A stretch of DNA of 64,000 nt from an uncultured bacterium. GTDB taxonomy: Bacteria; Patescibacteriota; Minisyncoccia; UBA6257; GWB1-50-10. The notes beneath the pieces were generated by a model. It was not told where the DNA came from, did no database searches, and worked only from the letters and a program-made list of their open reading frames with translations. Shown here piece after piece: positions 4-45,119 of the stretch (position 1 is the first letter of the stretch; the number at the start of each line of letters is the position of its first letter). The DNA lies in NCBI GenBank assembly GCA_963768835.1, contig CAVYJB010000002.1, forward strand, positions 208,223 to 272,222, given 5' to 3'. Made by a program: the position numbers and the translations under genes.

Positions 4-3000
4 TTGAATGGGGGTAACTCCGGATCGATGTCATCGTACAACTTCACCCGCAACCTCACTGTGGGCTCGAGGGGGGCCGATGTAACAGCGCTCCAGAACA
101 TCCTTATTTCAAAGGGATTTCTCCACATTACAGCCGCAACTGCCTACTTCGGTCCCGCGACCAAGGCAGCCGTTGCAGCATGGCAGGCGTCCGCTGGGAT
201 CTCCCCGGCAGTCGGTTACGTCGGTCCGTTGAGCCGCGCGGCCTTAAACGCGATGGCTTCTACGGGCGGTAACGGCGGTAATGGAGGTAACGGCGGCAAT
301 GGCGGGAATGGAGGCGTCGTGGCTCCGAGCTCGGGTTTGGCGGTCAGTTTGGCCTCCGATAACCCCGGGCAAGGCTCCTTCATCGGCGGCTCCACGCGCG
401 TCAAAGTGCTTGCTGTGAACTTCACGGCCGGCAACTCGGGCGCGGTGAACATCACCCAGCTCCAGTTCCACAAGTCCGGCGTCCTCTCGGACAGCCAGGT
501 TTCGAACGCCTACCTCATGCAGGGCGGGAAGGTAGTGGCTCAGTACCAATCGATTTCGCAGGGTGTCATCACCTTTGCGGGGTTGAACTTCTCGATTCCG
601 GCGGGGCAGACCTGGGAGTACACGTTGGGCATTGATCCGGCTACGGGCATCACAGCGGGGAACACAGTAAACTTCTCCCTGAATGCTCCGTCTGACGTCA
701 CGGCGACTGACGTGTCCAACAACCCGATTACCGCATCCGGTCCGCTTCCTCTGACGAGCAACATCTTCACCTCGGCAAGTGTCACGAGCCCGTCGCTCGC
801 TTCGCTCGGTTTCACGAACGCAGCGGTCGGCAACTCGGTCTACGCCGGGACGCAGAACGTCCTCGTCTCGCAGTGGACGACGAACGTGCAGAACAGCCCA
901 GTGAACCTTTCTTCGATCAACTTCCGGGTCGTGGGTTCCGCGAACAAGAGCGACATCAAAAATGTGAAGCTCTACATCAACGGCACCCAGGTGGGCAACA
1001 CCCTAACCTCGGTTGATCCGAGCGGGTTGGCTTACTTCGATCTCTCGGCAACGCCGGTGAAGATCTCGACAGGTTCCTCGAACGTGCAGGTCTACGCGGA
1101 CGTCATGGGTTCCCCGAGCTTCAACTTCCAGTTCGAGCTCCTGAACACCTATGACATCTACGCGATCGACACGCAGTACAACGTTCCGGTCGCAATCAGC
1201 ATCACGGGCGGCGCGGGCACAGTGGTGGCCATCAACCAGGGCCAGCTGACCGTCACGCAGTCCAGCGACTCGCCGACCTCGAACGTCGCGAAGGGCCAGA
1301 ACTCTGTAACCCTCGCGAAGTACAAGATCTACGCCGCGGGTGAAGCCGTGCGCGTGAAGTTCTTGACCTTCAACATCGTCTTCGCTACGACCGGCCTTGC
1401 TAATGGGCAGGTTCCTAGCCAGATTAAGAATGTCCAGATCGTAGACGATCAGGGACAGCAGGTAGGTAGCACCATCAACACACCTCCGACCTCCAACACC
1501 TGTGACACCAGCGGTGGGAGCAACAATGGAGCCACAGCAACAGCAGGCACCGGTGGTACCAACACCTACACCGATTGCTTCGGCAACTCGTCGTCCCCAA
1601 TCAACTACGTGATCCCGGCGAACACGACTCGTATCCTCTCCCTCAAAGCGGACATCCAGTCGGCCCCGATCTTCACGACTATCCAGGCCAACCTCAACGG
1701 GAACTACCAAAACCTGCAGGGCTTGACCTCGAGCCAGATTGCGAACACCTCGGCGGTTTCGGGTAACACCCTTACCCTCGCCGCGAACTCGCTCTCGGTC
1801 GGCATCAACACGGCTTATGGTAACCAGACGATGCCGAAGGGTTCTTCGGGACAGCACATTGGTTCCTACCTCCTCACCGCTTCGACAGCTGAGGGCGTGA
1901 ACGTGAGCAACCTGACGATTACGTTGGGTGGCCCCGCTTCTACCTCGACCGCGAACCTCGTGGTGAAGGTGAACGGAACGCAGTTCGGAAGCCAGTACGG
2001 GACGGTGTCGGCCACCGGCTACACCTTCTCGGGCACGCCGTTTATGGTCCCGGCAGGTGGCAGCGTGACGGTAGACGTCTACGCGGACATCCTGTCCTCG
2101 GCGAACGGCGCGTTGGGCACCATCACCACCCTCACGTCCTGTCAGGGCACGGGTGCGGTGTCCTTCTCGGCGGTCTCCTGTAACCCGGCTGGCGTCGGTG
2201 GCCAGGCCCTCACGATTGGCGCAGCGGCTTCGCTCGTCATCGCGGCGGACTCCAACACCCCGGCGGCAAACCAGGTTGTGATGGGTGCGACGCAGGTTCC
2301 GCTTGCGTCTTACCGCTTCACAGAGACCTCGAACGTTGAGTCGGTAAAGATCACGGACTTGCACGTCTTCCAGATGGTGGCGACTTCCACGGCGTCGACC
2401 CAGTCGGCGTTTGGTAACCTCACCTTCTACGACGCGTCGAACAACAACCTCGGCGTGGCAGGTTCCGCAGTCGTCTCGACGAACCCGGCGGCGACCACAA
2501 CCAACCCGTCCGGTCCCGGATACCTCTACTCGTTCCACTTTGTGAACCCTGTAGTGGTGCCGGCCGGCAACTCGGCTGTGATCACCCTGAAGGGCGATGT
2601 GTCGACGTACGGATCGCACGGTGCGACCGACAACACGACCTCAACCTTTATCGTCGCGACCTCGACCGACGTGGGCAACCAGACCGTGGCGCAGATGATC
2701 ACGGCGCTGGGACAGACCTCGAATGCGACGGCGAACACCTCGTTCTCGTCGGGTAACCAGGCGAACGGTAACGTGATGACCGTCCTCCGCAGCAACCTCG
2801 CGGTTACGGCGGCAGCGATGGGCGCAAGCGTGAACCGCTCCAAGGCGACCAACGACGACATCGGGTCCCTCACCTTCACGGCAAACGCGAAGGGTTCAGT
2901 GGCCCTGAACAAGGTGACTGTCACCTTCGGTGGTTCCGCTCCGTCCTCGACGAACTTCACGGCGGCGGCGGGCAACTTGATTCTCTTCGACCCCTCGACG

Positions 3001-3336
3001 GGCCTTGCGGCGGCGGGCTACACGCTTGCCACCTCGACGGCTTGTAACTCTGCGAACACCTGTTCGGCTGTGTTTACCTTCGGTAGCAGCACGAATGGGT
3101 ACCAGATCTCGGCGGGTACGGCGAAGACCTTCACGGTGCGTATTGCCAACGAGAACTCGAACATGCTGACGGGTGCCAATGGTGTGACGGAATCTCTCTC
3201 CGCGACCATCCAGAACGTGGGTGATGTAACATTCACCGACGGCTTGGATTCGACCGCGGTAGCGAACATTGCCGTCCCCGTGACCAACCCGGTTCCGCTG
3301 ACGATCAACTCGATCGGCTTCACGCAGGGTCAGTAG
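4..3336 (+). CDS. Giant Ser/Thr/Asn-rich surface protein with N-terminal peptidoglycan-binding (PG_binding_1-like) domain and a (GGN)n linker; 5' end probably lies upstream of the window
   Basis: The ORF runs in frame from position 1 (frame 1 is open from the first base); the track ORF begins at a TTG. The N-terminus 'RGADVTALQNILISKGFL...YFGPATKAAVAAWQ' matches the PG_binding_1 pattern. It is followed by a GGNGGNGGNGGNGG run and about 1000 aa of low-complexity T/S/N/G/V-rich sequence typical of beta-rich cell-surface proteins. The antisense 538-aa Arg-rich ORF is a GC artefact. Confidence 0.6.
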   Translation: MNGGNSGSMSSYNFTRNLTVGSRGADVTALQNILISKGFLHITAATAYFGPATKAAVAAWQASAGISPAVGYVGPLSRAALNAMASTGGNGGNGGNGGNGGNGGVVAPSSGLAVSLASDNPGQGSFIGGSTRVKVLAVNFTAGNSGAVNITQLQFHKSGVLSDSQVSNAYLMQGGKVVAQYQSISQGVITFAGLNFSIPAGQTWEYTLGIDPATGITAGNTVNFSLNAPSDVTATDVSNNPITASGPLPLTSNIFTSASVTSPSLASLGFTNAAVGNSVYAGTQNVLVSQWTTNVQNSPVNLSSINFRVVGSANKSDIKNVKLYINGTQVGNTLTSVDPSGLAYFDLSATPVKISTGSSNVQVYADVMGSPSFNFQFELLNTYDIYAIDTQYNVPVAISITGGAGTVVAINQGQLTVTQSSDSPTSNVAKGQNSVTLAKYKIYAAGEAVRVKFLTFNIVFATTGLANGQVPSQIKNVQIVDDQGQQVGSTINTPPTSNTCDTSGGSNNGATATAGTGGTNTYTDCFGNSSSPINYVIPANTTRILSLKADIQSAPIFTTIQANLNGNYQNLQGLTSSQIANTSAVSGNTLTLAANSLSVGINTAYGNQTMPKGSSGQHIGSYLLTASTAEGVNVSNLTITLGGPASTSTANLVVKVNGTQFGSQYGTVSATGYTFSGTPFMVPAGGSVTVDVYADILSSANGALGTITTLTSCQGTGAVSFSAVSCNPAGVGGQALTIGAAASLVIAADSNTPAANQVVMGATQVPLASYRFTETSNVESVKITDLHVFQMVATSTASTQSAFGNLTFYDASNNNLGVAGSAVVSTNPAATTTNPSGPGYLYSFHFVNPVVVPAGNSAVITLKGDVSTYGSHGATDNTTSTFIVATSTDVGNQTVAQMITALGQTSNATANTSFSSGNQANGNVMTVLRSNLAVTAAAMGASVNRSKATNDDIGSLTFTANAKGSVALNKVTVTFGGSAPSSTNFTAAAGNLILFDPSTGLAAAGYTLATSTACNSANTCSAVFTFGSSTNGYQISAGTAKTFTVRIANENSNMLTGANGVTESLSATIQNVGDVTFTDGLDSTAVANIAVPVTNPVPLTINSIGFTQGQ

Positions 3337-3381
3337 TCCGGACCGATTGTCCTAGGTTTTCTGGTAGCGTAAACCAGACTT

Positions 3382-3415
3382 CCAGCCCCTCCTTCGGGAG
3401 GGGCTGGTCGTTTTT
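3382..3415 (+). terminator. Rho-independent terminator after the giant surface protein gene
   Basis: Stem ccagcccctcc / ggaggggctgg with ttcg loop, followed by tcgttttt. Confidence 0.6.
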
Positions 3416-3458
3416 AGAGGGAGGAGGCCCTGCCTGGAGCGAGAATTGAGTTTTTAAA

Positions 3459-4853
3459 ATGGGTAGGGTACACTGGAGGAGCGTTTTTCTTATGCCCCAC
3501 TGGTTCAAGCTTTCGAAATTTTTCCTCATTGTAGCAATCGTGAACGTGGTCATCGTCACGACCTCGACGCTCTTCCCGTTCATTGTCGGGAAGTATGCGT
3601 GGTTTCGGACGAGCGTGGACCTCGCTCTCATCACATTTCTCCTCGGGGTTCTCATGGGGGGCGTAGAGGCCACCGATATTCTCGCGCGGCTGAAGCGCAT
3701 TGCGCGCTCGCCCCTCGCTATCGCCGTCACGGTCTTCGTGGCGATGTTTTTGCTTGCTTGCCTCTTCGGCGTCGACCCCCACAACTCTTTCTGGTCCAAC
3801 TTTGAACGGGGCGAGGGTGGATTCCAGGTGCTCCACCTATGGATTTTCTTTGCGCTTCTTGTGGCGCTTTTCCGCACGGACCGCGATTGGTGGAAAGCGT
3901 TCGGGTGGTTCATGGGGGCCGGGATCGTAATGGCGCTCTATGGCATTGGGGCGGGGTTCCAGTGGCAAGGGTTTATCGGTATTCCATTCACGCAGCCTTC
4001 CTACCGCCTCCAAGGCACTATAGGAAACCCAGCTTATGTGGCAACTTACCTTCTCTTTCTCCTGGCATACACTATCTATTTTTTCCTTGATGCGTACCGC
4101 AAACGCCCTCGCGCCGGCGGCGCCATTGCCATCATCGCGTCTTTTGTCGTTCTTCTCGCAGCCTTCTATTTTGCGGCGACTCGTGGGGCTTTCGTAGGAC
4201 TTATCGTGGCGGCCCTCGCATTCCTTGCATACTTTGCATACAGCCATAAAGCATGGCGCAAGTGGCTTATCGCTATCGGCGTGGCCATGGTGGCACTTGT
4301 GATACTCGGGGTGAGCCTCAAAAACAATCCGATAATGCAGAAGATTCCTGGCTCGCGCATCTTCGACCTCTCGTTCACCACGCAGACGTTCCATGATCGC
4401 ACTGTGATTTGGAAGATGGCGTGGGACGGTTTCCTGGCGCGCCCCGTCTTCGGCTGGGGTCCCGAGAACTTTATCAAGGTCTTCGACACGCATTTCAATA
4501 TTGTTTACTTCACGCCCCCGGGTGCGTTCGGGGCCTGGTTCGATCGGGCGCACAGCCTTATCTTTGATTACCTCGCAGAAACAGGCATTATCGGGTTCTT
4601 GAGCTTCGCAGCCGTCTTTGTTGTCTTTTTCCTTGCATTTATCAAGGCGCGGCGACCTGGCTCCGGGGCAGTCCTCGCAGAGAAACCAATCGTTCTCCAA
4701 GCGCTCGTTTTTGCAGTCCCGTTCGCGTACCTCACGCAGGGGCTCGTACTTTTCGATGTGCTGCCCACCTACACAAATGTCTTTTTCTTCCTCGCTCTCG
4801 CGACCTATCTTTTCGCGCGCGGAAACCACACGGAGCATAAACCCCAGTCATGA
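3459..4853 (+). CDS. Wzy_C-family polytopic membrane protein (O-antigen ligase/polymerase or O-oligosaccharyltransferase-like)
   Basis: About 10 or more predicted TM helices. Contains the Wzy_C signature 'AHSLIFDYLAETGIIGF' (H-x-x-x-x-x-YL-x-ETG-x-x-G), which is conserved in WaaL, Wzy and PglL-type enzymes. Confidence 0.6.
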   Translation: MGRVHWRSVFLMPHWFKLSKFFLIVAIVNVVIVTTSTLFPFIVGKYAWFRTSVDLALITFLLGVLMGGVEATDILARLKRIARSPLAIAVTVFVAMFLLACLFGVDPHNSFWSNFERGEGGFQVLHLWIFFALLVALFRTDRDWWKAFGWFMGAGIVMALYGIGAGFQWQGFIGIPFTQPSYRLQGTIGNPAYVATYLLFLLAYTIYFFLDAYRKRPRAGGAIAIIASFVVLLAAFYFAATRGAFVGLIVAALAFLAYFAYSHKAWRKWLIAIGVAMVALVILGVSLKNNPIMQKIPGSRIFDLSFTTQTFHDRTVIWKMAWDGFLARPVFGWGPENFIKVFDTHFNIVYFTPPGAFGAWFDRAHSLIFDYLAETGIIGFLSFAAVFVVFFLAFIKARRPGSGAVLAEKPIVLQALVFAVPFAYLTQGLVLFDVLPTYTNVFFFLALATYLFARGNHTEHKPQS

Positions 4854-5515
4854 CGCAGGAGACCACGACAAACGACAAACACCCGCTTCTCCGGTACTTC
4901 GTCTGTACCGCGGGCATCATTCTCGCGTTCCTTGGCATCGTCTACGGTTCCTTCCTGCCGTTCACGCGATCACAGCGTTTCATTCAGGCCTTGAATGCTT
5001 TGGGTGGTGGACAGATCAAGTCGTTCCAGGATTTCCAAACCACCTTCGATGGAGTCTTCAACTATTATGCTCCGGTGGGCAATGAAGAGGTGGCAAAGTT
5101 TCTCGCAGGTGACGTGATGCAGCTCGTAAGTCAACCTGGGCAGCCGGAGGCCATCGCGCGCATGGTGGTGCAATATATCGAACCGCACATGTTCAAGAAC
5201 GATGTGCGACACCTCCTCTCCCTCGGACAGATGTATTACACGCTCTGGAAGAACTATGGGAAATCCTCAGATTATGTCACGGCGGAAGGATACTACCTTA
5301 AAGCTCTCGCAATCGGCCCCAAACTCCCACCAGTTCTCTACAGCCTCCTTTCGATCTATGCCGAAGCAGGACAAATCGCAAAGGTGAAAGCGGTGGCCGA
5401 AACCATTCTCACGTACTGGCCGCAAGATACGAGTGTGCAGCAAGCGCTCGCTGCCGCGAACGTGGCACTGGCGAGTTCCACAGCTACCTCAACGTCCGCT
5501 CAAAAGCACAAGTAA
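4850..5515 (+). CDS. Hypothetical membrane-anchored protein (N-terminal TM, helical/TPR-like C-terminal part)
   Basis: ATGA start/stop overlap with the upstream gene suggests translational coupling. There is a single N-terminal hydrophobic helix. No recognisable catalytic motif. Confidence 0.4.
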   Translation: MTQETTTNDKHPLLRYFVCTAGIILAFLGIVYGSFLPFTRSQRFIQALNALGGGQIKSFQDFQTTFDGVFNYYAPVGNEEVAKFLAGDVMQLVSQPGQPEAIARMVVQYIEPHMFKNDVRHLLSLGQMYYTLWKNYGKSSDYVTAEGYYLKALAIGPKLPPVLYSLLSIYAEAGQIAKVKAVAETILTYWPQDTSVQQALAAANVALASSTATSTSAQKHK

Positions 5516-5528
5516 GGGGCAAGTAGGA

Positions 5529-5568
5529 ATAGCGCGTTTGCCAACGGACGGCAAACGCGCTATTTTTA
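5529..5568 (+). terminator. Rho-independent terminator
   Basis: Perfect 12-bp stem agcgcgtttgcc / ggcaaacgcgct with aacggac loop, followed by atttttatt. Confidence 0.6.
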
Positions 5569-5621
5569 TTCGAGTATTTTCATATAAAAAAACATCCATT
5601 CACGAATAAGAGAGGGACGAT

Positions 5622-7397
5622 ATGGCGGCGAAAAAGCGGGTGATTCTCGTGGGTCGCTACCACATCATCGAGCCCTTGGGGATTCTGTATCTTCTAGGGG
5701 TCGCAAAGCGGTTGGATTGGGATACGCAGGTGGTGCTTGTGAGCGCGTTTGATTTCGGACCTTTGTTCGAGGAGATCCGTCGCGCAAAACCGGACATCGT
5801 TGGGTTCTCGATCTGGACAGGGTATCATCTGCCCATGTTCGAGGCTTGCGATAAGGTTCGCGCGCTCGGAATCTCCGTTATCATCGGAGGTCCGCACGCG
5901 ACATTCGCCACCGAGCAGTGCGCGGAACATGCCACATGGGTCGTAAAAGGGGAGGGGTTCCGGAATTTCAGGAGGATTCTTGAGGGCGAACTTGAGCCGG
6001 GGGTCCATTTCGACGACGTGCGTATGGCAGAAGGCTTCCCGATGCCGGACCGCGCGCTCGTGTATCGCACCTACCCCGCACTGGGGTTGAATCCCATCAA
6101 GAGCATCATCGCTTCTGTGGGATGCCCCTTCAAGTGCAGCTACTGCTACGCTCCGCACTACAACGATTTGTACGGCGGATTTCTTCTCACGCTCCGGCCC
6201 ATCGACCAGATCATCGAAGAAGCCATCATTATGCGAGACCGTTGGGCGCCTCGGATGGTCTATTTCCAGGACGATATCTTCGGCTTTAACATTCCGTGGC
6301 TTCGAGAGTTCTCGAAGCGGTGGAGAGACGAAGTCGGGATTCCCTGGCATTGCCAAATACGCCTGGAGCTTACCCGCGACGAGGAACGGTTAGACCTGTT
6401 CCGTGAAGCGGGTTGTACCGGCATCACACTTGCCATTGAGTCTGGGAACGCATTCCTCCGGGAGTTCGTCCTTCTCCGGCCGATGCCCGACAACCTTATT
6501 GTGGAGGGTATCCAGCGGATTCGGGCCCGCGGTTTCACGCTGCGGACCGAGCAGATCCTGCAGGTGCCCTTCAGCAATCGTCGGACGGATCTTCAGACGC
6601 TCGAGCTCAATAATCGATTGAATCCCGAGATCGCCTGGACCTCCATCCTTTCGCCGTACGGAGGGACGAATATGGGACGCATCGCGAAGCAGTTCGGATT
6701 CTTTGACGCGAACAATGACGCGTTGCAGGATACGTTCTTCAACCGAAGCGTTCTGCGTCACGTTCGGGACGGCATCGAGACTTTGGAGCCGGTAGTCGCG
6801 AAGGCGCTCCAGGGGAAGGGTGACAACCCATTGCTCCGAATGCGCGTGGAGCCTAACGGTCGGAACAAGGCGCAGGTGTATCTTATGCGCCACGACCCCA
6901 CGGCCCGCGAGGAGCCGGTATGCGAGCTCAAATTCCTTTCTCAAAAAGAGAACGAGCGTTATCGGGATGAGGGAGTCGTGCTCCAACGGCTTTTCGACTG
7001 GTTCTCCCGCGTTCCCAAAGGTTCTGAACTTGCGGAACGGTTCCTTGAGCTTCCTTCGGAAGCGTGGAGCTGGGAGAGGCTGGGGCGGATGACCGAGAAG
7101 CATCTCGGGGACCTCGGCTATGGGGAGCGGATGCGGGATTGGAAGCTTCAACTCGCGCATGAGCTCGGGGTCACACCCGATGCGTTGCCGCGGGGGGTTG
7201 CTGAGAATCCCTTCTACTTCTGCTTTTTCCCATCGGCGGCGGGGTTTGCGCGGACGGTCATCGCGCGGCACGCCTTCGAGCAATCGTCGTTCGAAGCGGA
7301 ACTCTCCATTCTCGGGCGGGAAGTTCGGTACTGGCTCTATGATCATGCGCTCTATCGGATTGAGGGCGCGGAGGAACCTATCACCGTGGATGCATGA
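5622..7397 (+). CDS. B12-binding radical SAM protein (class B radical SAM, methyltransferase-like)
   Basis: CxxxCxxC motif 'CPFKCSYC' preceded by an N-terminal Rossmann-like region of the kind seen in B12-binding radical SAM enzymes. RBS agagggA lies upstream of the ATG, and an AT-rich promoter-like stretch precedes it. Confidence 0.65.
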   Translation: MAAKKRVILVGRYHIIEPLGILYLLGVAKRLDWDTQVVLVSAFDFGPLFEEIRRAKPDIVGFSIWTGYHLPMFEACDKVRALGISVIIGGPHATFATEQCAEHATWVVKGEGFRNFRRILEGELEPGVHFDDVRMAEGFPMPDRALVYRTYPALGLNPIKSIIASVGCPFKCSYCYAPHYNDLYGGFLLTLRPIDQIIEEAIIMRDRWAPRMVYFQDDIFGFNIPWLREFSKRWRDEVGIPWHCQIRLELTRDEERLDLFREAGCTGITLAIESGNAFLREFVLLRPMPDNLIVEGIQRIRARGFTLRTEQILQVPFSNRRTDLQTLELNNRLNPEIAWTSILSPYGGTNMGRIAKQFGFFDANNDALQDTFFNRSVLRHVRDGIETLEPVVAKALQGKGDNPLLRMRVEPNGRNKAQVYLMRHDPTAREEPVCELKFLSQKENERYRDEGVVLQRLFDWFSRVPKGSELAERFLELPSEAWSWERLGRMTEKHLGDLGYGERMRDWKLQLAHELGVTPDALPRGVAENPFYFCFFPSAAGFARTVIARHAFEQSSFEAELSILGREVRYWLYDHALYRIEGAEEPITVDA

Positions 7398-7410
7398 TGG
7401 ATCGGATACC

Positions 7411-7445
7411 AAGTGGCCTGCAGGATATTCTGCAGGCCACTTTTT
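7411..7445 (+). terminator. Rho-independent terminator after the radical SAM gene
   Basis: Perfect 13-bp inverted repeat aagtggcctgcag ... ctgcaggccactt with a 6-nt loop, followed by ttttt. It lies inside the 5' extension of track ORF 7413..8711, so the downstream gene must start later. Confidence 0.7.
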
Positions 7446-7484
7446 GTAATACCATCGACCACTTGGTATAGTTGGAGGAACGAT

Positions 7485-8711
7485 ATGCGGCCGAATGCGC
7501 TCCAACGGATTGAGTTGGCGGTGGTCCGCGGTTACACCGCGTTTCTGAACGCGCTCCTCTCCGCGCTCGAGAAACTGCTTTTTAGACCCCTTACCGCGGA
7601 ACCCAAGAATATCCTCATCTTTAAGGGGGGGAATATTGGGGATATCGTTTGTGCTATCCCGCTTTTCATCGCTATCCGGCGGACCTATCCCAAAGCGCAC
7701 ATCACGCTTATGACCTCGCCGGGCATGCGCGGTATCCCCGGCGCACCCGAACTTCTTACGGGCGCATGGTTTTTGGATGCCATCGAGGTCTACGATTCTA
7801 AGGACATCGATTCATGGGTGAAGCTTCGGCGGTTTGGGGAACGTATCCAGAAGAGGGGATACGACCTCTTCATCCATGTTCCTGTCCATGACTGGATGAA
7901 GTTTCGTACGTTCGTGCGGAACATGCTTTTCATTCGTCTCATGGGCTTCCGGCACGCATTCGGGTTCCGCGTCCGCACCGTCATTCGTCTTTTTCGCAAG
8001 ACACAACTTGATTACACATTCGAAACCAAAGAAGTGGAATCGCTCCTCGAGCTTTTTCGGAAGAACGGCATCCGCGCGGACCGCGTTGAGTTTGATTTTC
8101 CAGTTTCTGCTGCGGATGAAATTCAGGTAGAAGAACTCTTGAAAAAACAATGGCCAGACTTCGAGAAATGGAGTGCGGCCGGTGGGTTGCTCGTCGGTCT
8201 CCACGACGGGAGCAAACGGAAAGAAAAACAGTGGCCGCCAGAACGATTCGGGGAGATGGGGCGCTACCTAGAAAACGCCCACCACGCACGGTTTGTTATT
8301 CTCGGAGGTCCGGCAGATCGAGTGGAAGCGGCGGCTATAAAAGGTTTTCTTGCTTCTCCGGAAGATGCTCTGATCGTGGCAGGCGAACTTTCCATTCTCG
8401 AGGTGGTAGCTCTCCTGCGTCGCGTAAGCTTCCTCCTTTGTATTGACAGCGGAATGATGCACATCGCGGGAGCTCTCGGGAAGCCGACGGTGGGGCTTTT
8501 CTCCATCCTCGGCGTCCTTGGAAGATGGCATCCATATGGTGATAATCACGAAGGGCTTTTCCATCGTTTTTTGAAGTGTAATTACCATACTGTGGAATGC
8601 GTGCGAGAGAGTATGGAGGCCATTACGGTTCCTGAGGTTAAGGCTGCTTGCGACCGCGTGATCCGGCGGCTGCACGAAAACAAAGGACGGACGAAGAAGA
8701 ACCATGAATAG
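7485..8711 (+). CDS. Glycosyltransferase family 9 (ADP-heptose:LPS heptosyltransferase-like)
   Basis: GT9 pattern 'ILIFKGGNIGDIVCAIPLF' and C-terminal 'GGPADR...IDSGMMHIAGALGKPTVGLF'. Start chosen at ATG 7485, which has GGAGG 7 nt upstream and lies downstream of the terminator. Confidence 0.6.
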   Translation: MRPNALQRIELAVVRGYTAFLNALLSALEKLLFRPLTAEPKNILIFKGGNIGDIVCAIPLFIAIRRTYPKAHITLMTSPGMRGIPGAPELLTGAWFLDAIEVYDSKDIDSWVKLRRFGERIQKRGYDLFIHVPVHDWMKFRTFVRNMLFIRLMGFRHAFGFRVRTVIRLFRKTQLDYTFETKEVESLLELFRKNGIRADRVEFDFPVSAADEIQVEELLKKQWPDFEKWSAAGGLLVGLHDGSKRKEKQWPPERFGEMGRYLENAHHARFVILGGPADRVEAAAIKGFLASPEDALIVAGELSILEVVALLRRVSFLLCIDSGMMHIAGALGKPTVGLFSILGVLGRWHPYGDNHEGLFHRFLKCNYHTVECVRESMEAITVPEVKAACDRVIRRLHENKGRTKKNHE

Positions 8712-31365: not shown

Positions 31366-33534
31366 ATGAAGCAGGTATTCCAAAATCCGAAGTCCGGGAA
31401 GACGAACGTCGAGGATGTCGCAGCGCCCTCGGTGAGCCATGGCCGCGTGCTAGTCCGGAACCACTACTCCGTCATCTCCGCCGGAACCGAGCGGAGTATT
31501 ATCGAACTCTCGAAAAAGAGCGCGCTTGAGAAAGCCAAGGAGCGCCCGGACTACGTGCAGAAGTTCTTCCGCACGGTCCAGACCAAAGGGATCTTCGCTG
31601 CATGGCAAATGGTGCAGGCGAAGCTCTCGGTTCCTATCGCACTTGGCTACTCCTCCGCGGGTGAGGTGCTTGAGGCGGGGAGCGGCGTTGAAATGATAAA
31701 ACCCGGTGACCGCGTCGCGTGTGCAGGGCAGGACCACGCGTCGCACGCGGAGATAGTTTCGGTTCCGAAGAACTTAGTAGCGAAGATCCCGGAGGGTGTC
31801 GCGGATGATGAAGCGGCTTTTACCACACTTGGCGCCATTGCGCTTCAAGGTATCCGGCAGGCGGAGCTTACACCAGGGGAAAACGTAGCTGTGGTGGGGC
31901 TGGGGCTCCTAGGCCAGATTGGTGTTCGCATGCTCAAGTCTTACGGTCACCCCGTGCTAGGAATCGACGTGAACCCCGCGCAGGTGGCATTCGCGGAGAA
32001 GAACGGTCTTAACCAAGGATGCGTTCTGGGGCAGGACGACCCTGTGGCGGTTAGCCAGCGATTCACAGACGGCCGTGGGGTAGACGCTGTTATTATCTAT
32101 GCGAGCTCGAAAAGTGACGAACCCTTGAAGCTCGCGGTTTCCATTTCCCGCGAGAAGGGCCGCGTGGTGCAGGTGGGAAGCGTCCTCGCGAACATCCCCT
32201 GGCGTGATTTTTACCAGAAAGAGCTGGCGTTCTTTTCCTCCCGCTCCTACGGCCCGGGCCGTTATGACCGGCGCTACGAGGAAGGCGGGGAGGATTATCC
32301 CGTGGGCTATGTACGGTGGACGGAGCAGCGGAACATGGAGGAGTTCCTGCGCCTTCTTGCGGAAAAGCGCGTGAATGTCCGCGATCTTGTGACGAAAACT
32401 TTCCCCATTGCGGAGGCGGAGGCGGGGTATCGCTTTATCTTCGAATCGCAGCAACTGGTGCACGGCGTTCTTCTCTCGTACCCGGAGGGGCGACTTGCAG
32501 AAACAACCCTTCGCATTACGGAGCCTGTGCAGGGGGCGCTCGTGCCGCAGCAAAGCGTGCGAGTCGGGATCGTGGGTGTTGGGGCTTTTATGACGGGGAC
32601 CGTAGTGCCGCTCCTCAAGAAGATGAAGGACGTCTCCGTGCGCGCCGTCTGCGATTCACGCGGGCTTATTGCGAAGAATTTTGCTACCGCACTCGGCGCG
32701 GAGTACACCACCTCGGATTACCACAAGGTCCTCGAGGACCGCGCGGTGGATCTTATCGTCTGCGCGACGCGTCACAGTTCGCACGCAGCCATCGCGGAGG
32801 CGGCGCTCGCGGCGGGCAAAAGCATCTATGTCGAGAAGCCGCTCGCGCTGAACTCCGAGGAGCTTGAGAATGTGCTTCAGGTTGCGGCGTCGTCGAAGGG
32901 GCGACTCCTTGTTGGGTTTAACCGCAGATTCTCGCTGCATGTCCGAAAAACCCGCGAGGCGTTCTTGAAACGAACCACCCCGGTCCAGATGCTCTACCGC
33001 GTGAACGCGGGGCCGCTCGACAAGGATTTCTGGGGTTATGATCCTAAGGAGGGTGGCCGTATCCTTGGTGAAGGTTGCCACTTTGTGGATACGCTCCAGT
33101 ACATCGTCGGCGCGCCGGCGGTGCGAGTAAGCGCAACTGCGGTGCCGGTCCAGGGCGCGGTCACTCATGAAGAGAACTTCACTGTGACCATTGAGTATGC
33201 GGATGGGTCCCAAGGAACTATCGTCTACACCGCGCTCGGGAACTTCCGGGCGCCGAAGGAGTACTTCGAAGTTTATGGCGGGGGGACCGTCTGCAAAGTA
33301 GACGATTTCAAAACGGGAAGCATCATGCGACCCTCGGGTACGGAGAAACTAAACCTCTGGAAGCAGGACAAGGGCTATGCCGCGGAACTCTCCGCGTTCC
33401 TAGACGCGCTCCGGAGCGGCGCGCGCTCACCGATGCCGCTTGAGGACATCCGCACGGTCCACGAAACCACCTTCGCCATCCTTGAGTCCCTCCGAACCGG
33501 AAAGCCGGTCACCGTCCATGGGCGGGCGGCTTGA
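31366..33534 (+). CDS. Bi-domain oxidoreductase: N-terminal MDR/zinc-type alcohol dehydrogenase fold fused to a C-terminal Gfo/Idh/MocA-family oxidoreductase
   Basis: N-terminal 'VISAGTERS' and 'VVGLGLLGQIGVRM' indicate the MDR fold. C-terminal 'VRVGIVGVGAFMTGTVVP' and 'VDLIVCATRHSSHAAIAEAALAAGKSIYVEKPLA' are GFO_IDH_MocA hallmarks. Confidence 0.6.
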   Translation: MKQVFQNPKSGKTNVEDVAAPSVSHGRVLVRNHYSVISAGTERSIIELSKKSALEKAKERPDYVQKFFRTVQTKGIFAAWQMVQAKLSVPIALGYSSAGEVLEAGSGVEMIKPGDRVACAGQDHASHAEIVSVPKNLVAKIPEGVADDEAAFTTLGAIALQGIRQAELTPGENVAVVGLGLLGQIGVRMLKSYGHPVLGIDVNPAQVAFAEKNGLNQGCVLGQDDPVAVSQRFTDGRGVDAVIIYASSKSDEPLKLAVSISREKGRVVQVGSVLANIPWRDFYQKELAFFSSRSYGPGRYDRRYEEGGEDYPVGYVRWTEQRNMEEFLRLLAEKRVNVRDLVTKTFPIAEAEAGYRFIFESQQLVHGVLLSYPEGRLAETTLRITEPVQGALVPQQSVRVGIVGVGAFMTGTVVPLLKKMKDVSVRAVCDSRGLIAKNFATALGAEYTTSDYHKVLEDRAVDLIVCATRHSSHAAIAEAALAAGKSIYVEKPLALNSEELENVLQVAASSKGRLLVGFNRRFSLHVRKTREAFLKRTTPVQMLYRVNAGPLDKDFWGYDPKEGGRILGEGCHFVDTLQYIVGAPAVRVSATAVPVQGAVTHEENFTVTIEYADGSQGTIVYTALGNFRAPKEYFEVYGGGTVCKVDDFKTGSIMRPSGTEKLNLWKQDKGYAAELSAFLDALRSGARSPMPLEDIRTVHETTFAILESLRTGKPVTVHGRAA

Positions 33535-34492
33535 TTACTGGAGGCGTATCGCTTCGGTCTACCTCTTAGGGGCGCCGAGCGCGGTCACATTTTGGCACGA
33601 AAAACCTGCCGTGTCGGAGGGCGTGGATATGCATTCTCTCGGGGCCTATTACATGACCTTCGCGGATAAAGCGCGCTATACGGGGCCACGCGACGAGAAA
33701 GGCGTTATCAAGTTGGATTATCACGGATCTATCGGTGTGCGGTACAACCCTATCGCCGTTGCGCAGTACGGCCTCGCGCATTGGAATCTTTTCTTGAAAA
33801 CAAAAGATCACAGGCATTTAACCGAGGCGACGGCACAAGCGGATTGGTTGGTGGGGAATCTCGAGGAGAACGAAAAAGGCGTGCCGGTCTGGAAACATCG
33901 CTTCGCGTGGCGGTATGCGCAAGAACTCAAGCCCGGGTGGTACTCAGGACTCGCCCAAGGGAGTGGCATCTCGCTTCTCTCGCGCATCTACACCGCGACA
34001 AAGGATGAAAAGTACCGCGCGGCTGCGCAACGTGCCTTCCGAGCGTTCGTCACCAATGTGAAGGATGGGGGAGTGCAGGTGAAGGATGAGGAAGGCAACC
34101 TCTGGCTCGAAGAGTACATCGTTAAGCCACCGACCCATATCCTGAATGGTTTTCTCTGGACGCTCTGGGGTGTCTGGGATTACTGGCTTTTGACCGGTGA
34201 CAAGGTTGCGCACGATCTTTTTGACCGCTGCATCGCGACGCTCAAAACGAATCTCCCGCGCTACGATATCGGATTTTGGTCTCTCTATGATCTCTCGGAG
34301 CAGAATCTCAAGATGGTCGCCAGCCCTTTCTACCACCATCTGCATGTAGTCCAGCTTGGTGTCACACACATTCTAACCAGCGAGGAGGTGTTCGGGTTAT
34401 ACGCCAAGCGCTGGAGTCGTTATGCGCTAAATCCTCTCTACTTTGGCCTCGCGGTTGCCTACAAAGCGTTCTTTAAGATTTTTTATTTCTAA
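33518..34492 (+). CDS. D-glucuronyl C5-epimerase C-terminal-domain-like protein
   Basis: 'PGWYSGLAQGSGISLLSRIYTAT' resembles the 'WYSAMAQGQAIS' core of the C5-epimerase C-terminal domain. Start chosen at ATG 33518, which overlaps the upstream stop by 17 nt. An alternative start is Met at 33623. Confidence 0.45.
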   Translation: MGGRLDYWRRIASVYLLGAPSAVTFWHEKPAVSEGVDMHSLGAYYMTFADKARYTGPRDEKGVIKLDYHGSIGVRYNPIAVAQYGLAHWNLFLKTKDHRHLTEATAQADWLVGNLEENEKGVPVWKHRFAWRYAQELKPGWYSGLAQGSGISLLSRIYTATKDEKYRAAAQRAFRAFVTNVKDGGVQVKDEEGNLWLEEYIVKPPTHILNGFLWTLWGVWDYWLLTGDKVAHDLFDRCIATLKTNLPRYDIGFWSLYDLSEQNLKMVASPFYHHLHVVQLGVTHILTSEEVFGLYAKRWSRYALNPLYFGLAVAYKAFFKIFYF

Positions 34493-34503: not shown

Positions 34504-35055
34504 ATGCCGAAGAAGAATATTGAAATAGAGTATCGCGCGCGTTTTGACGAGAAGAAACACATTGAGCTTCAAAAATTCTTGAGCGCAAAAGCGCAGGATT
34601 TAGGGCAGGACGACAAGGATGTCTATTTCTTTCTATTTCCGGACAAGCTCGTGAAGACGGTGAATAATATATCAAAGAAGACCGCGAAGATCGTTCTAAA
34701 ACTGAATAAGATTGGCAAGGGAAGCATTTTCGAGGAAATTGAGATTCCCATCAATTCAGGAGACTTCGATAAAGCGACAAGGCTTTTTGTCGCGCTTGAG
34801 ACGGGCGAGTATATGCACTCGTTCCAGAAACGGCACAACTATCTCTATAAAGGCGTTGAACTAGCGCTGAAGTGGAGCGAGACGTGGGGCTATCATCTGG
34901 AACTCGAAATTGTCATGGATGATGCCGAGGGGAAAGGAGATGCCGAAAGAAAGATATCCGCAGTTGCAGAAGAGTTAGGGATTAAAACCATGACAGACCA
35001 AGAGCTTTCGGAGTTTACGCAGGCTGCGGAGGCGGAATACAAGAAGCAGAAATGA
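34504..35055 (+). CDS. CYTH-domain protein (triphosphate tunnel metalloenzyme / CyaB-like)
   Basis: N-terminal 'NIEIEYRARF' matches the ExExK/R opening beta-strand signature of CYTH. Basic/acidic residues alternate along predicted beta-strands. The gene is low-GC. Confidence 0.4.
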   Translation: MPKKNIEIEYRARFDEKKHIELQKFLSAKAQDLGQDDKDVYFFLFPDKLVKTVNNISKKTAKIVLKLNKIGKGSIFEEIEIPINSGDFDKATRLFVALETGEYMHSFQKRHNYLYKGVELALKWSETWGYHLELEIVMDDAEGKGDAERKISAVAEELGIKTMTDQELSEFTQAAEAEYKKQK

Positions 35056-36005
35056 ACAAGATTTTGGACTCTACGAACTTTGTCGTTCAGGACTCCCGTT
35101 CTGTGAAAATCAACAGAATAAAGGTCTCTGAATTCTCGAAGATTTTCAAGCAGGAGGAAACTAATGACTTACTGAGCCAGGCCCCATTCGATTTTTCGGG
35201 ATTCAGTGACGATGAAAGGTTTAGATTTACACTCATCTTCCAGTCGATCAATTTCTGTTATTGGGGTGACCCCAAGTGGACAATTGAGCACGATGGGAAA
35301 CTCTACGATGGTGCTTGGGGCATGGTCGTCGCGCTGGGGCAAGGTATCCGAGATGGGTTTCCACTTCTCGACTTTAGGTATTGCTCGAAGATAACCAAAG
35401 ACGACCTTGGAAGAATTTTGCGGGCGAACACCGAGATTCCGCTGTTCGAAGAACGCTGGCGAATCCTCCAAGAGATTGGGTTGGTGATGTTAAGTAAATA
35501 CGAAGAGGGGTTAACCTCGCTTGTCGCTAATTCAAACTCCGATGCCGCAAGACTACTCGATGTGATCGTGCGGGATTTTCCTTCATTTAGAGATAGCTCA
35601 AGCTATCGGGGGCGAGAGGTGTTTTTCCAGAAGAGGGCTCAGCTGCTTATTACGGATCTTTGTCAGATGTTGAAGAGACAGGGTGTTATGCTCAAAAACA
35701 TTGATCAACTTACTGCTTGTGCAGACTACAAGCTCCCGCAGATTATACGACGACTCGGGATACTGGAATATGCCGACCAGCTCGCGAAAACAATCGACAG
35801 TAAGATCGAGCTCCCGCATGGGTCGGATGAGGAGGTCGAGATACGCGCTAACACCATTTGGGCAGTGGAGTATATGAAAGAAGAGATACAGAGACAAAGT
35901 CCAGATGTCACTTCAATGGAGATCGACGGTTATCTGTGGCAAGCCAGCCAGGAAAAGCCGGTTGACGAGAAGCCTTATCATCGAACAAGGACAACGGCAT
36001 ATTAG
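35052..36005 (+). CDS. Queuosine-salvage family (DUF2419/Qng1-like) protein
   Basis: 'FQSINFCYWGDPKWTIEHDGKLYDGAWGMVVAL' resembles the conserved core of the Q_salvage family. Low-GC gene that overlaps the stop of the upstream CYTH gene. Confidence 0.4.
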   Translation: MNKILDSTNFVVQDSRSVKINRIKVSEFSKIFKQEETNDLLSQAPFDFSGFSDDERFRFTLIFQSINFCYWGDPKWTIEHDGKLYDGAWGMVVALGQGIRDGFPLLDFRYCSKITKDDLGRILRANTEIPLFEERWRILQEIGLVMLSKYEEGLTSLVANSNSDAARLLDVIVRDFPSFRDSSSYRGREVFFQKRAQLLITDLCQMLKRQGVMLKNIDQLTACADYKLPQIIRRLGILEYADQLAKTIDSKIELPHGSDEEVEIRANTIWAVEYMKEEIQRQSPDVTSMEIDGYLWQASQEKPVDEKPYHRTRTTAY

Positions 36006-36029
36006 GCCCGTGGTATCCTTCCTCTAGAC

Positions 36030-36542
36030 ATGACCAATCCTTCCACAACCTGTCCCGGCTGTGGAATTGTGCTACCCGCCGGTTCAATACGAGCGAACGG
36101 GCTCGGCAACCGATCTCCTGAATGCCAGGAACTTTTCCACGAGTTGTCTTTCTACACGCTCGCGCATCCCAAGCCCTCCTTCTTTATCCATCAGTACGCC
36201 GTGGATGCCTACGCGGCGCAGCATGCGGGGCCAAAGACAAAGCCCATAACCGTGGCCTTCGCCCTGACGGGTCTCCATCTTTTCATAACGTATGGGTACT
36301 CGGGCCGAGAGGTCCAGAAGGCGCATATGTACATGGCGAAGCAAAGGAAGGAGTGGCCGACGTTCGCCATCCCGAAAACCAAGGGAGCACTCACGGTTCG
36401 GGATGTGATACAAGCTCCGGCCGGTCCGGAACGTGATAAGGCGATAAAGAACTGGGCTCGGTCGGTCTGGGCCGTATGGAGCGGTGAGCACAAGGCCGTT
36501 GCAGACCTCCTCGTGTCGCTGAACCTCCCGCCCGCTCGTTGA
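36030..36542 (+). CDS. Hypothetical Cys-containing protein (possibly DUF5946-like, zinc-ribbon N-terminus)
   Basis: 'CPGCG...SPEC' is a putative Zn-binding N-terminus. High GC, unlike the two upstream genes. No functional motif recognised. Confidence 0.4.
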   Translation: MTNPSTTCPGCGIVLPAGSIRANGLGNRSPECQELFHELSFYTLAHPKPSFFIHQYAVDAYAAQHAGPKTKPITVAFALTGLHLFITYGYSGREVQKAHMYMAKQRKEWPTFAIPKTKGALTVRDVIQAPAGPERDKAIKNWARSVWAVWSGEHKAVADLLVSLNLPPAR

Positions 36543-36670
36543 CTCCCTATCGGCTAATACGTGCGAATAAGAAAATAAGGGAATCGCTTCGTGATGCAAC
36601 GTTCTTGAAATCAGGATTTCCAGCCTCTACCATTTAGGTAGAGACCTTTCATATTCGGAGGGAAACAGAT

Positions 36671-37255
36671 ATGGGACTCTTATTACTTCTGCTTCTCGTG
36701 GTGCTCTACGCGCGATACTTGTTTGAAGACCTCCCGGAGCATAGAAGAATTCTGAGGTTGCAGGAGGCCGGGCTCAGGGCTACCAATGAGGACTGCGACG
36801 CGAGTGATGCAATGGACAACTGGCGTCTTGCGAATCCCACCATAGGGTTCGGCGACTCTGCGTATGCCCAAGAACTGGTATGGAGACGTATTGCCGCTTG
36901 GCGACGATTCATGGAGACCCACCCGCACGTGCAAGACCGCGGCTTCACCGCTTTTCTCTATTCTCTCCTCGACCAGCGCGGGTCACCGCCACCCGCCCAT
37001 CACTTACCGCTTTCTAAACGGCCTCCTACGGAGGCCGTTCTTTTTATACCTAGCCGAACCACTCGTCGTACCAGAGCGAAAGCGTTACGAGATTCCAGAT
37101 GCGGAAGTTATGCTCCACACCCCGTTCTTGGTGCGCATGGACAAGCGTGTTCACATAGTCGTAGTCGAGGATACCGCGCTCGCGGAGCTTGGAGTTCAGG
37201 ATGGCGTCCACGAAGAGTGGCGCCATTTTTGATTCTGGCTTCAGCCACTCACTAA
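36671..37255 (+). CDS. Hypothetical protein with a hydrophobic N-terminus; the 3' end is doubtful
   Basis: GGAGGG lies 7 nt upstream of the ATG, and the N-terminus 'MGLLLLLLLVVLYARYLF' looks like a signal/TM segment. The first ~110 aa look protein-like. The distal part is R/S/P-rich and overlaps the asnB-like 3' end on the other strand, so a frameshift or artefactual extension is possible. Confidence 0.25.
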   Translation: MGLLLLLLLVVLYARYLFEDLPEHRRILRLQEAGLRATNEDCDASDAMDNWRLANPTIGFGDSAYAQELVWRRIAAWRRFMETHPHVQDRGFTAFLYSLLDQRGSPPPAHHLPLSKRPPTEAVLFIPSRTTRRTRAKALRDSRCGSYAPHPVLGAHGQACSHSRSRGYRARGAWSSGWRPRRVAPFLILASATH

Positions 37256-44603: not shown

Positions 44604-45119
44604 ATGATAAGGGAGCCTATGGAACCGGAGGCCGTCCCGTATCACGTTCGTGCCCGACGTTCTTTTGCTAGGACGAACTTAAGGCGCCGCAGAATTCGTG
44701 AGCCCAATAAAGGACAGGCCACGCTCTCCTTCGTTCTCATCGTGAGCGGCATCATTATCGAGATCGCCATTGCGGGGTCCTTCATCGCTTACTTCCTTTC
44801 GAATGCGGGGCTAGGGGAGCGGCTCTCGGCCCGCGCGCTTGCGGCTTCGGAGGCTGGCCTCCGTGACGCGGCGGAGAGAGTTGCCCGCAATAAAGATTCC
44901 TGCGCCAGCACCTGCCTCTACAATTTCGCCGTAGGGAGCGACGCGGCGGCTATCACCGTGACACGTACCGACGATCCCACCGATAACATCTACTTTTTCT
45001 CTATTACCTCTCTTGGCACCGCAGGGACACGAGAGCGGCAATTCGTCGAGACTCTTTCAGTAAACAAAACCACAGGTGTCGTCGGGCTAAGCACCATTAC
45101 TGAGCAACCTCTCCCATGA
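44604..45119 (+). CDS. Putative pilin/pseudopilin-like protein with an atypical long basic leader
   Basis: A basic leader 'RRRRIREPNKGQ' precedes the hydrophobic segment 'ATLSFVLIVSGIIIEIAIAGSFIAY'. This resembles a class III (prepilin) signal but lacks the canonical G/FTLIE. It lies directly upstream of a PilM/N-like gene. Confidence 0.3.
   Translation: MIREPMEPEAVPYHVRARRSFARTNLRRRRIREPNKGQATLSFVLIVSGIIIEIAIAGSFIAYFLSNAGLGERLSARALAASEAGLRDAAERVARNKDSCASTCLYNFAVGSDAAAITVTRTDDPTDNIYFFSITSLGTAGTRERQFVETLSVNKTTGVVGLSTITEQPLP

Follow-up and report, generated by a model that had tools for sequence, protein, structure and literature searches.

A two-part Wzy_C enzyme linked to a large wall-associated surface protein in Patescibacteria, a candidate surface-protein O-oligosaccharyltransferase

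Patescibacteria are abundant, mostly uncultured, and reliant on contact with host cells, and their surface molecules are largely uncharacterised. To which acceptor might a membrane-embedded glycan transferase of such a cell deliver its glycan? This question is raised by the left end of a 64-kb stretch of DNA from an uncultured patescibacterium (contig CAVYJB010000002.1; "the window" hereafter means the whole stretch of 64,000 nucleotides that was analysed), where a gene for a large surface protein, a hairpin, a gene for a Wzy_C-family membrane protein, and a gene for a small partner protein follow one another on the + strand. The original prediction had described a Ser/Thr-rich protein, a terminator, a Wzy_C open reading frame (ORF), a partner ORF, further large proteins, and a glycan locus, all of which are present where it placed them, and had proposed that the Wzy_C protein is a general PglL-like O-oligosaccharyltransferase (O-OTase). 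We see about an even chance that the Wzy_C enzyme and its partner form a two-part O-OTase dedicated mainly to the neighbouring surface protein. The literature that we searched was not found to describe this module for Patescibacteria, or the candidate phyla radiation (CPR). The elements on which the argument depends are the following.

4 to 3336, + strand: surface protein and candidate acceptor, the C-terminal 1110 aa, recognised by Pfam PG_binding_1, its family, a structural model, and Foldseek
3382 to 3415, + strand: intrinsic terminator-like hairpin with a T-run closing the surface-protein gene, assessed by folding against shuffled sequences
3492 to 4853, + strand: WaaL-fold Wzy_C glycan transferase as predicted, 453 aa with ~12 transmembrane helices; an alternative ATG lies upstream at 3459
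4182 to 4184, + strand: codon of Arg231 in an ATRG motif, aligned with WaaL R191 of C. metallidurans and R215 of E. coli
4398 to 4400, + strand: codon of Arg303, aligned with WaaL R265 of C. metallidurans and R288 of E. coli
4542 to 4553, + strand: codons of the D351-R352-A353-H354 motif, with A353 in at least 90% of 116 sequences and the rest of the motif invariant
4850 to 5515, + strand: partner subunit, 221 aa, with one transmembrane helix and a TPR-like (tetratricopeptide repeat-like) helical domain

The ORF 3459-4853 matches the Pfam family Wzy_C (PF04932) with an E-value of 2.5e-20 and 73.2 bits against a cutoff of 31.7. Its true start is likely the ATG at 3492, with GGAGGA ~9 nt 5' of this codon and with the homologs and database entry P0001 (453 aa) beginning at the same place. 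More than 1200 homologs were found; the named ones belong to Minisyncoccia/Paceibacterota and to Jorgensen-, Wolfe-, Lipton-, and Brennerbacteria and are ~50% identical, and the relatives of the enzyme, the partner, and the surface protein are all from Patescibacteria/CPR. The domain survey covered 31 members of the enzyme family, including four fusion proteins, with matches up to an E-value of 1, and Wzy_C was matched by all 31. In an alignment of 116 enzyme-family sequences, on which all calls of invariant residues rest, each predicted outer loop carries invariant motifs, with R231, R303, D351, R352, and H354 among the invariant residues; the outer-loop motifs FPFIVGKY, SNFERGEGG, and GNPAY are invariant and specific to the family.

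Searching the enzyme as a single sequence against the PDB gave no matches, and its structural relatives were reached by the family profile only. Against all PDB sequences, this profile matched best the ligase WaaL (7TPG; E-value of 1.7e-9) and second best 9RMK (6.7e-6), a 610-aa chain titled 'Oligosaccharyltransferase' that is PglL-like as judged from its sequence. His354 aligns with H313 of WaaL and also with a His of 9RMK. The predicted fold is of the WaaL type, with ~12 helices and a large outer loop preceding the helix of the catalytic His; the fold libraries gave no PglL-like match, and the fold comparison thus cannot set WaaL against O-OTases. Aligned by hhalign with the single sequence of E. 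coli WaaL, the family gave a weak match (E-value of 0.078) but in register (R215 and R288), and the alignments with the E. coli polymerases WbbH and WzyE were noise without meaning; we take these single-sequence comparisons as auxiliary evidence only. Among the NCBIfam models, only a sub-threshold match to an oligosaccharide repeat-unit polymerase was obtained (E-value of 1.5e-3, 17.6 bits against a cutoff of 40), which we do not count as evidence. By these profiles and alignments, the enzyme is a predicted WaaL-fold transferase acting on a carrier-linked glycan.

The start codon of the partner gene overlaps the stop codon of the Wzy_C gene (ATGA), implying translational coupling of the two. 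The partner has a single hydrophobic, transmembrane helix at its N terminus, followed by a domain that matches TPR_19 below threshold in this protein (E-value of 1.2e-3); 18 of 28 family members match it, the best with 2.8e-6. The partner family is restricted to Patescibacteria, is ~190-205 aa long, and has invariant motifs. Gene neighbourhoods were sampled by scanning one genome per species, whereby 80 of 112 confirmed loci were kept. The partner follows 3' of the enzyme on the same strand in all 72 loci with downstream sequence. The two are fused in 7 of these loci, at most 150 bp apart in 55, and somewhat farther apart in 10. The natural fusions of Wzy_C and partner are ~650 aa long, and four of them (P0018, P0031, P0059, and P0112) align to the partner. 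A C-terminal helix and a putatively outward-facing domain beyond the WaaL-like core would be provided in trans by the partner, or in cis in 7 of the 72 loci, and the domain is not homologous to Wzy_C_2. The small protein is a true partner of the enzyme, so that the TPR-like accessory subunit suggested in the original prediction is borne out by 72 of 72 loci and seven natural fusions. Because WaaL topology leaves both ends of the core in the cytoplasm and one extra helix is added, the TPR-like domain would face the outer side of the membrane, by analogy with WaaL.

Which protein might such an outward-facing domain present to the enzyme? Starting from the enzyme, the surface-protein gene lies 5' on the same strand in 42 of 54 loci, directly adjacent in 21 and one gene apart in the other 21, and in ~17 of the latter the intervening gene encodes a longer Wzy_C paralog. 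A second, reverse sample consisted of metagenome loci seeded with the surface protein, 42 of them informative; the next same-strand gene after the surface protein belongs to the Wzy_C family in 31 of these, almost always as the long paralog. The relation between the enzyme and the giant surface protein, to which the original prediction had drawn attention, is therefore conserved from both directions. The long paralog, of 750-920 aa, has the same 12-helix core (hhalign probability of 100%, 27% identity) and a genuine C-terminal TPR array fused to it. It stands directly 3' of the surface-protein gene in loci L024, L034, L042, L045, L083, and most of L091-L167 (for example, L101:10385-12628), and there is none in this window. 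The simpler proposal that the short enzyme always stands next to the surface-protein gene was rejected, the neighbour being mostly the long paralog, and HU in three long contigs.

The ORF of the surface protein (4-3336) is truncated by the window edge, leaving 1110 aa within the window; the signal peptide falls outside. The complete protein of 1163 aa, with an N-terminal signal peptide, is found on an identical 13-kb contig (L001:1728-5219). The ORF contains a PG_binding_1 domain (Pfam E-value of 8e-9), and its composition is unusual: Ser and Thr make up 24% (10.6% for the other window proteins), and Lys, Arg, Asp, and Glu together 6.7% (23.7% for the others). Its relatives, 1100-1190 aa long and 47-60% identical, occur in Patescibacteria under the sole annotation 'peptidoglycan-binding protein'. 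Judged by these homologs, the surface protein represents a conserved family rather than an idiosyncratic low-complexity protein. The AlphaFold2 model (pLDDT, the predicted local distance difference test score, of 87.3) has an all-beta body, and shows in order a helical peptidoglycan-binding domain, a disordered Gly/Asn linker, and ~1000 residues of immunoglobulin (Ig)-like beta-sandwich domains. Foldseek matched the body to Ig-like arrays, such as those of PrgB, integrin legs, alpha-2-macroglobulin, and an archaeal S-layer protein.

A variable loop rich in Ser, Thr, and Gly, flanked by conserved cysteines and modelled with low confidence, was noticed at residues ~490-527 of ORF 4-3336 (window ~1470-1585). 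Lying inside an otherwise well-predicted Ig array, this loop is a plausible candidate glycosylation site in the model. Across genomes, the similarity of the surface protein does not follow that of the enzyme. In locus L083, the enzyme is 39% identical and the surface protein matches with an E-value of 6e-255, and in L004 the corresponding values are 54% and 5e-84; the mismatch points to subfamilies or to exchange of the surface-protein gene. On the 5' side of the surface-protein gene (L002/L003, L088, and L089) are found genes for an HtrA-like protease, ClpB, an unknown ~235-aa protein, and often a DeoR-type regulator. Since this upstream context is conserved, the surface-protein gene keeps one place in the chromosome, to which the enzyme and glycan genes seem to have been added variably on the 3' side.

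The hairpin between the surface-protein and enzyme genes (3382-3407, then the T-run) has an 11-bp stem with nine GC pairs, a UUCG loop, and a folding energy of -29 kcal/mol, which no shuffled sequence equals. A strong hairpin lies 3' of the orthologous surface-protein gene in 44 of 44 loci, and control windows contained such a hairpin in 0-3 of 44 inside the surface-protein gene and in 6 of 44 inside the Wzy_C gene. The second hairpin, 3' of the partner gene, brackets the enzyme and the partner as a two-gene unit in this genome and is not conserved (2 of 40 other loci). Taken together, the hairpins suggest that the surface protein is encoded by a structural gene with high expression and a transcript of its own, and that the enzyme pair is usually co-read with the downstream sugar genes.

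The comparisons above show the WaaL fold, its conserved residues, the pairing with the partner, and the gene linkage; the acceptor and the chemistry we infer as follows. The downstream locus would make a methylated oligosaccharide on polyprenyl diphosphate, and a Wzx flippase would take it to the outer face of the membrane. The enzyme (3492-4853), which has the predicted WaaL fold and retains the residues aligned with R191, R265, and H313 of WaaL, might then transfer the glycan en bloc through its outward-facing Arg231, Arg303, and His354 to hydroxyl groups of Ser, Thr, or Tyr in a secreted protein. The membrane-anchored TPR-like partner would sit beside the active site at the outer face and recruit or present the protein acceptor, as the 12-helix topology and the natural fusions suggest. 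The likeliest acceptor, pointed to by gene linkage, would be the upstream wall-anchored Ig-domain protein of ~1140 aa, which has its own terminator and is probably abundant.

Two further elements lie 3' of the module.

5522 to 5570, + strand: strong hairpin with a U-rich tail, 3' of the partner gene, -31.2 kcal/mol, z-score of -7.2
5622 to 41795, no strand assigned: presumed donor-glycan locus, recognised by family matches

The presumed donor-glycan locus encodes ~ten glycosyltransferases (one GT9, five GT4, three GT2, and one Glyco_trans_1_2), ~ten methyltransferases, a B12-binding radical S-adenosylmethionine (SAM) enzyme, a GDP-mannose dehydratase and other nucleotide-sugar enzymes, two Wzx-type flippases, an AsnB homolog, and an initiating phosphoglycosyltransferase of the Bac_transf family, with a few unrelated genes at 34504-37255. 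Beyond it follow housekeeping genes for Pth, LepB, HisRS, FtsA, FtsZ, and the ribonucleotide reductase RNR. Apart from the Wzy_C protein, both flippases, and the initiating transferase, no polytopic membrane protein is encoded in the window; it contains no second Wzy-like membrane protein, and its proteins gave no matches to the Wzz and LCP families. The 504-aa protein at 45116-46630 was considered as a hidden Wzy polymerase and rejected because it has only one hydrophobic segment. Elsewhere, too, the module is often flanked by glycan genes, including epimerase/dehydratase-type genes in 36 loci, GT4 genes in 27-28, and AsnB-like genes in 22, and the flanking gene sets differ between related loci.

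Several genes of the locus are noteworthy in their own right. The B12-binding radical SAM gene stands directly 5' of the GT9 'heptosyltransferase-family' gene (5622-8711) in what is presumed to be a monoderm, and a homolog of the radical SAM gene occurs in 1 of 80 related loci; the GT9 family is best known from the lipopolysaccharide (LPS) core and from Ser-heptosylation of autotransporters. Methyltransferase genes are unusually dense at 8704-28823, with ~ten genes, five of them of the FkbM type, which suggests a heavily methylated glycan. The ORF 33440-34492 contains a C-terminal domain of D-glucuronyl C5-epimerase (E-value of 6e-47), and this family is known chiefly from the biosynthesis of heparan sulfate; the true start of the gene is probably later, given a 95-nt overlap of the ORF with the gene before it. 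Near the other end of the window, the ORF 55936-61176 encodes a secreted protein of 1746 aa with BACON_2 and Big_7 domains, rich in Ser and Thr and low in charge like the product of 4-3336. The ORF from 61334 to 64000, which continues past the window end, encodes a secreted, Ser/Thr-rich protein with a GH18 chitinase-like domain (DGVEIDWE; Pfam E-value of 6e-21) and, after it, five or more Big_7 Ig repeats, and might be a surface-displayed hydrolase of wall or host glycan, as its domains suggest. That the three large Ser/Thr-rich proteins are paralogs was rejected because BLASTP shows no similarity among them.

How well does a dedicated protein O-OTase stand up to other explanations? Several points weigh against it. 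A Wzy_C domain or a WaaL fold cannot tell a lipid ligase from a protein O-OTase (PMC12645811), and the profile search places WaaL closer to the family than the PglL-like 9RMK. The domains PglL_A and Wzy_C_2, which accompany Wzy_C in the PglL/PglS class of O-OTases (PMC12645811), are absent among the matches listed for the 31 family members, which comprise 25 of 29 families, each of the other four being matched by at most one member. The gene linkage is incomplete: no surface protein was detected in 12 of the 54 enzyme-seeded loci, one of which (L064) has an undetected 1150-aa ORF at that place; the surface-protein and enzyme genes are on different contigs in LiPW_15; and an HU gene follows the surface-protein gene in three hand-picked long contigs. 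The strong terminator makes the surface-protein and enzyme genes separate transcription units. TPR domains occur also in polysaccharide export machinery, and the likeness to the S-layer enzymes WsaB and WsfB and to the ligase TacL was drawn from published descriptions rather than from sequences.

The foremost rival is a lipid ligase of the TacL/WaaL type, which would transfer the glycan to a membrane glycolipid or another non-protein anchor and thereby make a lipoglycan similar to type IV lipoteichoic acid; in that case, the TPR partner would serve in assembly or regulation, and the surface-protein gene would be a mere conserved envelope neighbour. In its favour, WaaL is nearest by both sequence profile and fold, the 453-aa core is close in size to WaaL and TacL (~400-420 aa; PMC5727136), the locus contains a GT9 'heptosyltransferase-family' gene, and the enzyme and surface-protein genes are parted by a strong terminator and unlinked in some genomes. 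The acceptor would hardly be lipid A-core, since CPR are placed inside a monoderm clade (bioRxiv 10.1101/2021.05.31.446380). No lpx or kdt genes were seen within the 64-kb window. The original prediction had reasoned from the lack of LPS to a protein acceptor. Its first half is strengthened by this placement, but the step to a protein overlooks TacL, which proves that a monoderm Wzy_C ligase with a glycolipid acceptor is possible (PMC5727136). We nevertheless regard a lipid ligase as unlikely: neither the description of TacL nor the structure of WaaL shows a sign of a TPR partner, whereas the partner here is obligatory and sometimes fused, and the literature ties TPR to the protein-directed WsfB, PglL, and WsaA/WsaB. 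A lipid acceptor also leaves unexplained why two paralogous Wzy_C enzymes with TPR are linked 3' of one secreted-protein gene, as seen from both directions. The enzyme might instead be the Wzy polymerase of the adjacent Wzx-dependent locus, linking repeat units at the outer side of the membrane, with the partner as a chain-length or export co-factor, as two Wzx flippases, an initiating phosphoglycosyltransferase, the lack of another candidate polymerase in the window, the occurrence of Wzy_C in polymerases, and the weak NCBIfam match would allow. Wzy polymerases are generally highly divergent, track the structure of their repeat unit, and usually come with a Wzz or PCP co-polymerase, whereas this family remains ~50% identical across class-level lineages while the adjoining glycan genes change. 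Because the enzyme is constant beside variable glycan genes, a ligase or oligosaccharyltransferase with a fixed acceptor is expected rather than a repeat-unit polymerase. The invariant Arg, Arg, and His align with ligase residues of WaaL, E. coli WaaL aligns in register where WbbH and WzyE do not, Wzz is unmatched in the window, and flippase-dependent oligosaccharide pathways without a polymerase are normal in protein O-glycosylation. We consider a polymerase quite improbable.

A protein acceptor was also the premise of the original prediction, in which a general PglL-like O-OTase would modify many secreted targets, among them the products of 55936-61176 and 61334 onward, with the upstream protein as one of many. 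The three large proteins are indeed alike in their Ser/Thr-rich, low-charge composition, a C-terminal TPR motif has been reported for PglL (PMC2943079), and 9RMK is the second-best PDB sequence match. Yet PglL_A and Wzy_C_2 were not detected and the profile is nearer to WaaL (1.7e-9) than to 9RMK (6.7e-6), so that a PglL-like identity is not supported in detail. Nor was support found for a general system that would also modify the other two large proteins: near the module, 80 other loci showed no homologs of 55936-61176, the protein from 61334 lying outside that search. Dedicated O-OTases are typically encoded beside their substrates and general PglL enzymes usually are not (PMC12645811), and the linkage to one candidate substrate fits the dedicated kind; by this analogy, the surface-protein-linked conservation looks more like dedicated O-OTases than a general system, which we think has little probability here. 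The idea of protein O-glycosylation was right in its direction, given Wzy_C and TPR split or fused as in WsaA/WsaB, WsfB, and PglL, and wrong in the specific family.

An enzyme pair dedicated mainly to the surface protein would make the module a testable trio, composed of a probably abundant wall-anchored protein, the enzyme pair likeliest to decorate it, and a variable locus supplying the glycan. If confirmed, it would extend O-glycosylation of S-layers in the Gram-positive style to a deep-branching phylum, and would offer a natural pair of split and fused forms for studying how TPR steers a WaaL-fold enzyme to a protein acceptor. With a lipid as the acceptor, the module would define a pathway to a lipoglycan instead, in organisms whose envelopes are considered minimal. 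A bolder extension, which we put forward only tentatively, is that the ~1140-aa protein might be the major S-layer-like glycoprotein of Paceibacteria-type Patescibacteria, to which two paralogous two-part O-OTases add lineage-specific, heavily methylated glycans. Were this true, the protein scaffold of these episymbionts would be conserved and their sugar coat hypervariable, a combination that could govern how hosts are recognised and phages evaded.

Which known system does the module resemble most? TacL of Streptococcus pneumoniae, likewise a monoderm Wzy_C enzyme, transfers its polymer en bloc from a carrier and is similar in size to the core of our enzyme (PMC5727136); its acceptor is a glycolipid, and neither a TPR partner nor linkage to a surface protein is described for it. 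WaaL (C. metallidurans, PDB 7TPG/7TPJ; E. coli) has in common with the enzyme the 12-helix core and the aligned Arg, Arg, and His. The enzyme differs from it in ~17% identity, a monoderm lineage, an obligatory partner that is not seen for WaaL, and outer-loop motifs of its own. The Gram-negative O-OTases PglL, PglS, TfpO, and TfpM share the Wzy_C/WaaL-like core and the catalytic His, and their extra C-terminal helix and periplasmic domain, as in PglS with 13 helices and a C-terminal periplasmic domain, would be the counterpart of the fused form described here (PMC12800693). Their dedicated classes are encoded beside the substrate (PMC12645811), as the enzyme is beside its candidate substrate here, but in our case their families PglL_A and Wzy_C_2 are not detected, the extra domain is TPR-like and usually separate, and the candidate substrate is not a pilin.

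The closest resemblance, by description, is to the predicted S-layer O-OTases WsaB of Geobacillus stearothermophilus and WsfB of Paenibacillus alvei, each with Wzy_C (PMC2943079). The TPR motif is C-terminal in WsfB, and WsaB lacks it but adjoins WsaA, a TPR protein of 168 aa (PMC2943079), so that Wzy_C and TPR are split or fused in these monoderms as in Patescibacteria. Our module is similarly a Wzy_C enzyme with a fused or adjacent TPR domain, in a monoderm and beside a glycan cluster. There are also differences. The wsaA gene lies 5' of wsaB, whereas the TPR gene here lies 3' of the enzyme gene and encodes a membrane helix of its own; export proceeds through a Wzm/Wzt ABC transporter in the Wsa and Wsf systems and apparently through Wzx flippases here; and PG_binding_1 anchors the candidate acceptor, whose degree of conservation is unusual for an S-layer protein and whose S-layer role is only putative. 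The S-layer glycosylation (slg) clusters share with our locus glycosyltransferases, methyltransferases, an initiating phosphoglycosyltransferase, and an AsnB homolog, which is the asparagine synthase homolog WsfA in the Wsf system (PMC2943079). The S-layer genes are monocistronic and, in Geobacillus, near the cluster (PMC2943079), as is the gene of the surface protein described here. By analogy with these systems, the odds seem roughly balanced that the patescibacterial module carries out a surface-protein O-glycosylation comparable to the S-layer glycosylation of Gram-positive bacteria.

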